Shown here: positions 4,766-30,004 of the stretch, one piece after another
Position numbering within the stretch: position 1 is the first letter of the stretch
How the letters are laid out: every line of letters starts with the position of its first letter
Assembly (NCBI RefSeq): GCF_018350175.1
Contig: NC_058368.1
Span: 97,528,001-97,592,000 of the forward strand
Direction: 5' to 3'
Source of the DNA: Felis catus
Lineage: Eukaryota
Length of the DNA: 64,000 nt
Notes under the pieces: generated by a model
Database searches by the model: none
What the model was told of the DNA's origin: nothing
Seen by the model: only the letters and a program-made list of their open reading frames with translations
Translations under genes and position numbers: made by a program

Positions 4766-4902
4766 CCTTTTCTCCCTCCTTCACAAAGTAGAGCAGAGTA
4801 TGATTCAGAAGAGAGTCTGGAGAGTGATGATGATGATGATGATGATGATGTTTTAGCTTCTGATTTCCATCTGCAAGAGCATTCTAATTCAAATTCATAT
4901 AG
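4766..4902 (+). CDS. DMXL1: DMXL1 coding exon (first in window): PFLPPSQSRAEYDSEESLES(D)8VLASDFHLQEHSNSNSY
   Basis: Poly-T tract + tatAG acceptor (4764-65), donor AG|GTATGG; 137 nt, phase 0 to 2; joins in frame with the next exon. Confidence 0.93.
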
Positions 4903-13516: not shown

Positions 13517-13579
13517 TCATTAGAGGACAACTGTGAAACCATCAAAAATTCTATGATGGAGGAGCCAAACATCAATAAG
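13517..13579 (+). CDS. DMXL1: DMXL1 alternative cassette exon (21 aa): SLEDNCETIKNSMMEEPNINK
   Basis: ttctttcttgatgaAG acceptor, AAG|GTACAA donor; 63 nt, phase 0/0, open frame; the 21-aa size matches the recalled length difference between human DMXL1 isoforms. Confidence 0.8.
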
Positions 13580-26145: not shown

Positions 26146-26287
26146 ATCAGAAGATTTCTTGGTTATACATGCTCGGGATGATTTAACAGCTGTGCAAGGT
26201 ACAACCCCATATACACACAGCAATCCCGGCACTCCGATAAATATGCCATGGCTTGGAAGTACACAGACCGGCAGAGGAGCCTCTGTG
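26146..26287 (+). CDS. DMXL1: DMXL1 coding exon: SEDFLVIHARDDLTAVQGTTPYTHSNPGTPINMPWLGSTQTGRGASV
   Basis: ttttgtAG acceptor, GTG|GTACGT donor; 142 nt, phase 2 to 0. Confidence 0.94.
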
Positions 26288-28570: not shown

Positions 28571-29943
28571 TTTCTTTCGTTGTCTTTTTTAATGGTGTAA
28601 GTTCCCTGAGAGATTACATTATGCCTCCCTTAGACACTGATGATCTCTAACCAGAATAGTGTTTAACATATAGTCAGTGCTCAGAAAATACTTGTTTATA
28701 CTCCAAAGCATTATAATACAGAAATTTACCTTTGTCATTCCTGTTAGGACTGAATTTTCTTTCTGTCTGCATCTTACAAGGACATGTTTTTAATGGAGAT
28801 GATCGTGATTTGTAAGCATAATGAGCTGAACGAGCCCCACGTCATTAAGTAAAAGACCCAGTATAATACAATGGTTGTTTTTTATATGGATCTTCTAAAA
28901 TAAGTAACAATTTATTTCCTTTGTAATGTTCTGTACATGCTCTGAGAGATTTTTTAAACCTCTGTTTATGTATTTTTTTACTTATGGTTTTTCTTGGATA
29001 CTTTAGTCGAAGGAAAAAGAACAGGAGTATTTAAGCATTTCTTAATTAAAAGGAACATGAGATTTCAACACGAAATTTACTAAACAAAAGAAACATTCAG
29101 CAAGTTTTCTTTTTTTGTGGAGGATTAATAAAATATTTTCTTTACTGATTTATTCAATTACAAATTCGAACAAAAAAGAATAGTTGTCATGACCAACTTC
29201 TGCTTTGGGAATATAATCACAACCATAAACACCTTTTAGTGTTTGTGTCCTTCACCATTTGTGCTGTCCTGCTCTCTTCCCTCCCTACCAAATCCCCACT
29301 TTACTCACAACTTCAGTGTAATGGGAAGTTTAAAATTCACAAGACAACAACAAAAAAATCTACTCAAGACTGATGCTACAAACCTAGGATAGCATATAAT
29401 TATACTTATAGTGCTATATAAATAGGAATTGTTCTATTAATTAAAATTATCCCTTTAATTTTGCATATTTATTCTTATTTGACAGGCTACTTAAATCATT
29501 CAAAGCATGACTTAAAAATGGGTAACTAAACAATTCCAAACTAGCAATTAAAAATTTGTACAATTTCTGTTTACCTCTTTTTTTTTTTTCACATGCTTCT
29601 GCCTGTCTTTTTAACCTTATACTATTCAGGATTATTCCAATAAATTTAATGGGATCAGAAAAGAATTGGCAAGAAAGGAGGTAAGAGTAAATTCTCAAGG
29701 TGAATTTGTTCTTAGAGCCTTGTCAGTGATGCAGAAAATGTATGTATACTTAAATGTAAGAGAGCTGAGCTATTAAGTTTAATTTCTGCTAACCGTGCTT
29801 GGTATTTTTAGCACCCATAATGGTAGTTATGGAATCACATAAAAATAAATAAATAGATGTTATTTGAATTTCCTGTCACAATTTGTATCTTTAATACTAC
29901 TTTTTAGCATAACTATAGAAGAACAATTTTTCTTTCTTAACAG

Positions 29944-30004
29944 ATGATTAAGAAAGCCATTAATAATGTCAGAAGAATGACTTCTCATCCAACTCTTCCG
30001 TACT
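29944..30004 (+). CDS. DMXL1: DMXL1 coding exon: MIKKAINNVRRMTSHPTLPY(Y)
   Basis: ttcttaacAG acceptor, ACT|GTAAGT donor; 61 nt, phase 0 to 1. Confidence 0.93.

Follow-up and report, generated by a model that had tools for sequence, protein, structure and literature searches.

A 51-nt segment of the Felis catus genome is almost certainly an alternatively spliced, frame-preserving exon of DMXL1, conserved from lungfish to placental mammals. DMXL1 is Rabconnectin-3alpha, a subunit of the mRAVE complex that assembles the V-ATPase. The best explanation overall, and one that could equally well prove wrong, is that this conserved exon tunes the ATG8- and membrane-dependent recruitment of mRAVE. The exon itself is no discovery, since it is present in public predicted isoforms; the main interest lies in its position beside a candidate LIR and in a same-site insert in protostomes.

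The window is the whole stretch of DNA that was analyzed, 64,000 nt of Felis catus assembly GCF_018350175.1 (NC_058368.1, 97,528,001-97,592,000, forward strand), and all positions are counted within it (Table 1). It belongs to felid DMXL1, because 12 of its exons, each translated separately, are identical to leopard DMXL1 isoform X1 (XP_019325129.1) at 424 of 425 residues. Human DMXL2 is strongly different over the C-terminal region, implying that the window exons are of the DMXL1 type rather than the DMXL2 type.

Table 1. Features of the DMXL1 window, with positions on the 64,000-nt stretch
Feature	Position	Strand	Evidence and remarks
DMXL1 alternative cassette exon, 51 nt, 17 aa, phase 0/0	29630..29680	+	Window letters and translation; 17/17 residues equal to leopard XP_019325129.1 residues 2798-2814
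3' splice-site region, AG-free, pyrimidine-rich, ending in acceptor CAG	29545..29629	+	Preceding AG at 29543
5' splice site GTAAGA	29681..29686	+	Donor GAG/GTAAGA; in marsupial read-through isoforms (n=2) V-R comes next, in agreement with the window
Upstream exon, 47 whole codons, ends in phase 0	26146..26287	+	Codes for a low-confidence loop and the first 2 residues of a predicted edge strand
Codons of the candidate LIR FLVI (human residues 2695-2698)	26156..26167	+	Motif from the available part of PMC12246789, position mapped here; insertion point 40 residues further on
Downstream exon, starts in phase 0	29944..30004	+	Codes for the remainder of the predicted edge strand and for the strand after it
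Second DMXL1 cassette exon, 63 nt, 21 aa, phase 0/0	13517..13579	+	Weak acceptor ending AAG

An earlier note on this DNA, the original prediction, had proposed an in-frame cassette exon of 17 codons behind a long pyrimidine tract, matching its neighbors in phase. All of these features were confirmed. The window letters give the borders 29630 and 29680, with the acceptor AG at 29628-29629 and the donor GAG/GTAAGA; translation of this segment yields 17 codons without a stop; and a search for exon borders shows that phase 0/0 agrees with the neighboring exons. The last three exons, whose borders this search misplaced because its range was too small, were left out. The 70 nt directly before the exon (29560-29629) are 76% pyrimidine, within an AG-free zone of 85 nt, and a branch-like TTTTAAC lies about 16 nt upstream of the exon. 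Between positions 4900 and 45000 there are three AG/GTRAG donors; of these, the one at 29681 alone forms an open in-frame exon of 30-90 nt with a pyrimidine-rich acceptor. DMXL1-type records with and without the peptide bear out that a genuine in-frame cassette places the 17-mer between GRGASV and MIKKAI.

The prediction had also called the exon hidden. This part has to be withdrawn: predicted isoforms in RefSeq and UniProt already contain the exon for many species, among them a felid (leopard XP_019325129.1), a jackal (Canis aureus XP_077767431.1) and the ruddy duck (Oxyura jamaicensis XP_035165196.1). Introns seen in RNA-seq usually underlie RefSeq X isoforms. We assembled 351 DMXL1-type protein records from three homologue searches and two cluster look-ups, and scored each at the exon junction; 86 that missed one of two anchors were left out, some of them fragments of genomic read-through and two of them marsupial isoforms in which the exon is present but its donor is not used. 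The 17-mer was present in 68 records, the 17-mer with a 5' extension in 2 and an unrelated 33-aa insert in 1, and 194 records skipped the exon; these counts come from a set enriched for carriers, as one search used the insert as query, carriers being the best 52 among the 120 matches listed of 393. The 33-aa insert comes from a snailfish; it seems unrelated, and we took it for an artifact of the gene model.

The carriers include placentals (leopard, jackal, raccoon dog, mustelids, seals, hippo, goat, deer, bats, rabbit and giant pangolin), marsupials (opossum and bilby), monotremes (echidna and platypus), many birds, squamates (five lizards and a python) and lungfish. All are predicted or automatically annotated records. 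The insert has a length of 17 in 68 of 70 carriers. Most placentals match the window peptide at 17/17 residues and most birds at 16/17, while lungfish matches at 11/17; for comparison, the upstream exon has 91% amino-acid identity to a bird-type record. Across 17 distinct variants of the peptide, 7 of the 17 positions are invariant, and these are concentrated in its second half. Inclusion and skip forms are both annotated within ruddy duck, harpy eagle, echidna, platypus, opossum, bilby and goat, so that at the level of annotation the inclusion and skipping expected of a micro-exon are both found within single species. Skipping is represented in Felis catus by UniRef100_A0ABI7YZH8 and in human by DMXL1 'isoform 6' (one fetched record each). 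Among the cluster members listed there was no carrier from human, mouse, other primates or rodents, amphibians or ray-finned fish, which is not evidence of loss.

Some records depart from this pattern. Two marsupial RefSeq isoforms include the exon but continue past its donor to a stop five residues later, so that the C-terminal propeller is mostly lost; past the donor at 29681, the corresponding frame of the window is open to 29776. The two 5'-extended forms, with 3 additional residues in a lizard and 13 in a bird (20 and 30 aa), suggest alternative upstream acceptors. Hints about the flanks of the exon come from such extended isoforms only: the lizard 5' extension ends in I-Q and the marsupial read-through starts with V-R, both matching the window. 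A search of sequencing runs listed 24, of which 18 held at least half of a 651-nt stretch; this query contains an intron, and the 18 matching runs are therefore uninformative on splicing.

A second cassette exon of DMXL1 lies further upstream in the window. In 229 long records, both exons were present in 48, the 17-mer only in 20, the 21-mer only in 78 and neither in 83. According to the available part of PMC12974184 and its supplement, a skipped DMXL1 exon regulated by ZMYND11 has 63 nt; judged by its length, it is probably the exon at 13517-13579. The 51-nt exon was rejected as the ZMYND11-dependent event for the same reason of length. A primer pair that was tried had no good match within the window. 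We also considered a DMXL1 isoform switch in Alzheimer disease (PMC13622813) as an event of the 51-nt exon and rejected it, as the available part of that paper concerns a decay-sensitive transcript and names no exon.

What might control the 51-nt exon? Upstream motifs of the types bound by RBFOX, QKI and SRRM4 had been proposed, and the words are present at the positions given for them: GCATG at 29505, ACTAA at 29525, and TGC at 29594 and 29600. Their number and placement do not speak for these regulators. In the 300 nt upstream, GCATG occurs once (0.22 expected), ACTAA once (0.33) and TGC five times (3.6), all at chance level; the full motifs TGCATG and ACTAAY are absent on either side of the exon, the RBFOX motif TGCATG from the whole 263 nt of the downstream intron; and the TGC words, at 30 and 36 nt from the exon, are too far from the acceptor. 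RBFOX, QKI and SRRM4 are therefore unsupported as regulators. Pyrimidine words upstream barely exceed expectation (TCTT 3 against 2.4, TTCT 4 against 2.7). In the short downstream intron, positions 29787-29799 hold a CTAAC between two TGCT words, near chance level, an arrangement that we take to be QKI- and MBNL-like. The likeliest control is by a repressor on the long pyrimidine tract, for example PTBP1, a choice that we make tentatively and would not be surprised to see overturned.

The exon falls in a part of the protein about which something is known. In the available passages of PMC12246789, the C-terminal propeller, WD40_3, is absent from yeast Rav1 and is placed near the membrane by an AF3 model, with WDR7 and ROGDI stabilizing its orientation. 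The same passages report that mutation of the candidate LIR FLVI (2695-2698) abolishes recruitment to lysosomes after TRPML1 activation, as does deletion of WD40_3 together with the LIR, and that direct binding of DMXL1 to GABARAP was undetected. By our mapping, the exon junction is 40 residues past the candidate LIR and inside a predicted edge strand of WD40_3.

The placement in a strand comes from two AlphaFold2 models. The skip form was modeled on a macaque fragment (P0191, 40 alignment rows): residues 130-181, which include the LIR, have pLDDT below 50, the mean over residues 181-190 is 74, and the junction is crossed by a strand formed by residues 189-194. The inclusion form was modeled on a pangolin fragment (P0176, 46 alignment rows, only about 6 of them with an insert); here residues 26-104, including the insert, have pLDDT below 50 and the strand is shortened to 107-109. 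The comparison is a weak one, as species and fragment lengths differ and the low confidence of the inclusion form may reflect alignment depth. In both models there are also strands upstream of the loop, implying that the loop departs from the C-terminal beta domain and returns to it. The original prediction had put the peptide just before the C-terminal WD40 repeats. This needs refining: strands of that domain precede the loop, and in these models the junction lies at the far end of the loop, inside a predicted strand. Among solved structures, the 6 that matched at E up to 1e-20 were all unrelated WD40 proteins, with no DMXL1 or DMXL2 chain. The 17-mer has a net charge of +2; an amphipathic helix was rejected, as its hydrophobic moment is not above that of shuffled sequences (P=0.27).

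These observations can be combined into a mechanism. It is likely that most mRNA skips the exon and that a restricted cell type includes it. Inclusion would place 17 residues, carrying a net charge of +2, between the two halves of the predicted WD40_3 edge strand, at the base of the candidate-LIR loop. On the models, this may lengthen the loop and loosen the conserved segment that precedes the junction. The geometry or strength of ATG8- and membrane-dependent recruitment of mRAVE, and hence of V1, would then be altered, and V1-V0 assembly and organelle acidification would be tuned by cell type. Among possible consequences of inclusion, such cell-type-specific tuning through changed mRAVE recruitment seems to us the most likely, although, resting on predicted structure, it has slightly less than an even prospect of being correct.

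Other explanations were weighed. The most serious, which we consider rather unlikely, is that the peptide acts on the architecture of the complex, through packing of WD40_3 against WD40_2 or WDR7/ROGDI, or docks a soluble tissue-specific partner, and has no part in membrane recruitment. The seven invariant positions, mostly in the second half of the peptide, resemble a binding motif, and the reported stabilization of WD40_3 by WDR7 and ROGDI (PMC12246789, available part) would fit packing of this kind; on the other side, the site adjoins the candidate LIR, the only motif of the region with a tested function, and this favors an effect on recruitment.

The exon might instead matter mainly at the level of RNA, or be included at low level everywhere, either as a tolerated minor isoform or as a switch in which an unused donor yields a truncated, decay-prone transcript. 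Skip records do prevail, 194 against 68, despite the carrier-enriched set, and the two marsupial isoforms that end five residues past the donor are of the truncated kind. On the other side, the peptide agrees between window and birds at 16/17, as high as the upstream exon (91% to a bird-type record), and keeps its length in 68 of 70 carriers. We regard this possibility as distinctly unlikely.

Still less probable is that the exon supplies a second LIR and raises avidity for ATG8. Residues 6-9 of the peptide, F-N-G-I, fit the LIR core [WFY]xx[LIV] as defined in the available part of PMC12246789, and they would lie 40 residues from the first candidate LIR. However, the aromatic residue is not conserved, being replaced by I in seals and mustelids, and the residue that precedes it is K rather than an acidic one. 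Glycine within an LIR core is also unusual. Finally, a pseudo-exon or gene-prediction artifact is barely conceivable: carriers are all predicted or automatically annotated, but the same junction, the same length and a near-identical peptide recur in independently annotated genomes from lungfish to placentals. Recruitment tuning by a conserved exon remains our preferred reading.

We also looked for inserts at this junction in more distant animals, using 50%-identity representatives, of which 30 of the 150 listed were aligned. Three of the aligned representatives, two snails and a tick, have a 28-residue insert at the same junction. In the spider mite Tetranychus, isoforms X1 and X2 (XP_015792669.1 and XP_015792670.1) differ there by 27 residues, and the records of the snail Bradybaena (BFY98259.1, BFY98260.1 and BFY98261.1) comprise a skip form and forms longer by 7 and by 35 residues; in this snail an extra optional piece of 7 aa stands right before the insert. 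The protostome insert is thus 27-28 aa long and optional within species, with a basic C-terminal half and the motif I[LV/I][DE]RSR. Between snails and chelicerates the insert is homologous (of 20000 column shuffles, 0 scored as high), whereas homology between the vertebrate 17-mer and the protostome insert was not supported (P=0.44). The insert was absent from the two mosquito, two crab, two acorn-worm, two lamprey and two human DMXL2 records inspected. In three more representatives, one from a nematode, a similar IIDRS-type motif occupies the junction and the conserved segment upstream of it is missing; these three proteins look as if inclusion had become permanent, perhaps in place of the displaced segment.

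A separate optional insert at the same site in mite and snail suggests that this is a site where insertion is useful. A bolder reading, which we think unlikely, is that the mRAVE scaffold has at this junction a splice switch dating back to the bilaterian ancestor. The WD40_3 edge strand would take up an optional basic segment at the foot of the LIR loop, with a length of 17 aa in sarcopterygian DMXL1 and of 27-28 aa in the chelicerate and mollusc proteins, and the segment may have become fixed in nematodes; by this switch one cell type, such as neurons or muscle, would get its own mode of V1 recruitment. If this were true, isoform-level control of V-ATPase assembly would have been kept, or re-invented at the same site, throughout bilaterian history. 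A strongly conserved optional peptide next to a motif needed for lysosome recruitment bears on how cell types tune V-ATPase assembly, and two constructs in a cell assay already in use would be enough to examine it.

Our literature searches found no description of the 51-nt exon, which may be listed in splicing atlases, in subscription journals or in further supplements, nor any account in print of the same-site protostome insert or of the structural placement. No DMXL1 row was present in the searched supplement files of PMC4317164, PMC8187152, PMC12064062, PMC5989265 and PMC5630039 (part of the files in each case except PMC12064062), and DMXL1 splice forms go unmentioned in the searched passages of recent mRAVE and DMXL1 papers. 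The exon appears to be real, already annotated and of a known class, and functionally unstudied as far as the literature was searched.

How does the exon compare with known systems? Leopard XP_019325129.1 (X1) has the same exon and junction and an identical peptide, by automatic annotation only. The protostome DMX insert shares the amino-acid junction, the optional use and a basic C-terminal half, but is longer and lacks significant similarity to the 17-mer. Neural microexons that depend on SRRM3/4 are 3-27 nt long, with UGC close upstream of the 3' splice site. The DMXL1 exon is likewise short, in-frame, conserved and in a trafficking-related scaffold, but at 51 nt, and with its nearest TGC 30 nt away, it departs from them in length and in UGC proximity. 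The ZMYND11-regulated DMXL1 exon (PMC12974184, available part) is also an in-frame cassette in the 3' part of the gene, but with 63 nt it is a different exon.

The exon belongs to the class of micro-exons of Li et al. 2015, described in the available part of PMC4317164 as symmetric, alternatively spliced exons of 51 nt or less, with annotation of those of 22-51 nt almost complete. The DMXL1 exon has the limit length of this class, canonical AG/GT sites, a preserved reading frame and conservation, together with a pyrimidine-rich upstream flank and a position in or beside a poorly ordered region. Downstream TGCATG, which the DMXL1 exon lacks, is enriched in the class and not obligatory (PMC4317164, same part). 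Unlike those micro-exons, the DMXL1 exon lands, on our models, in a predicted strand and not wholly in a loop.
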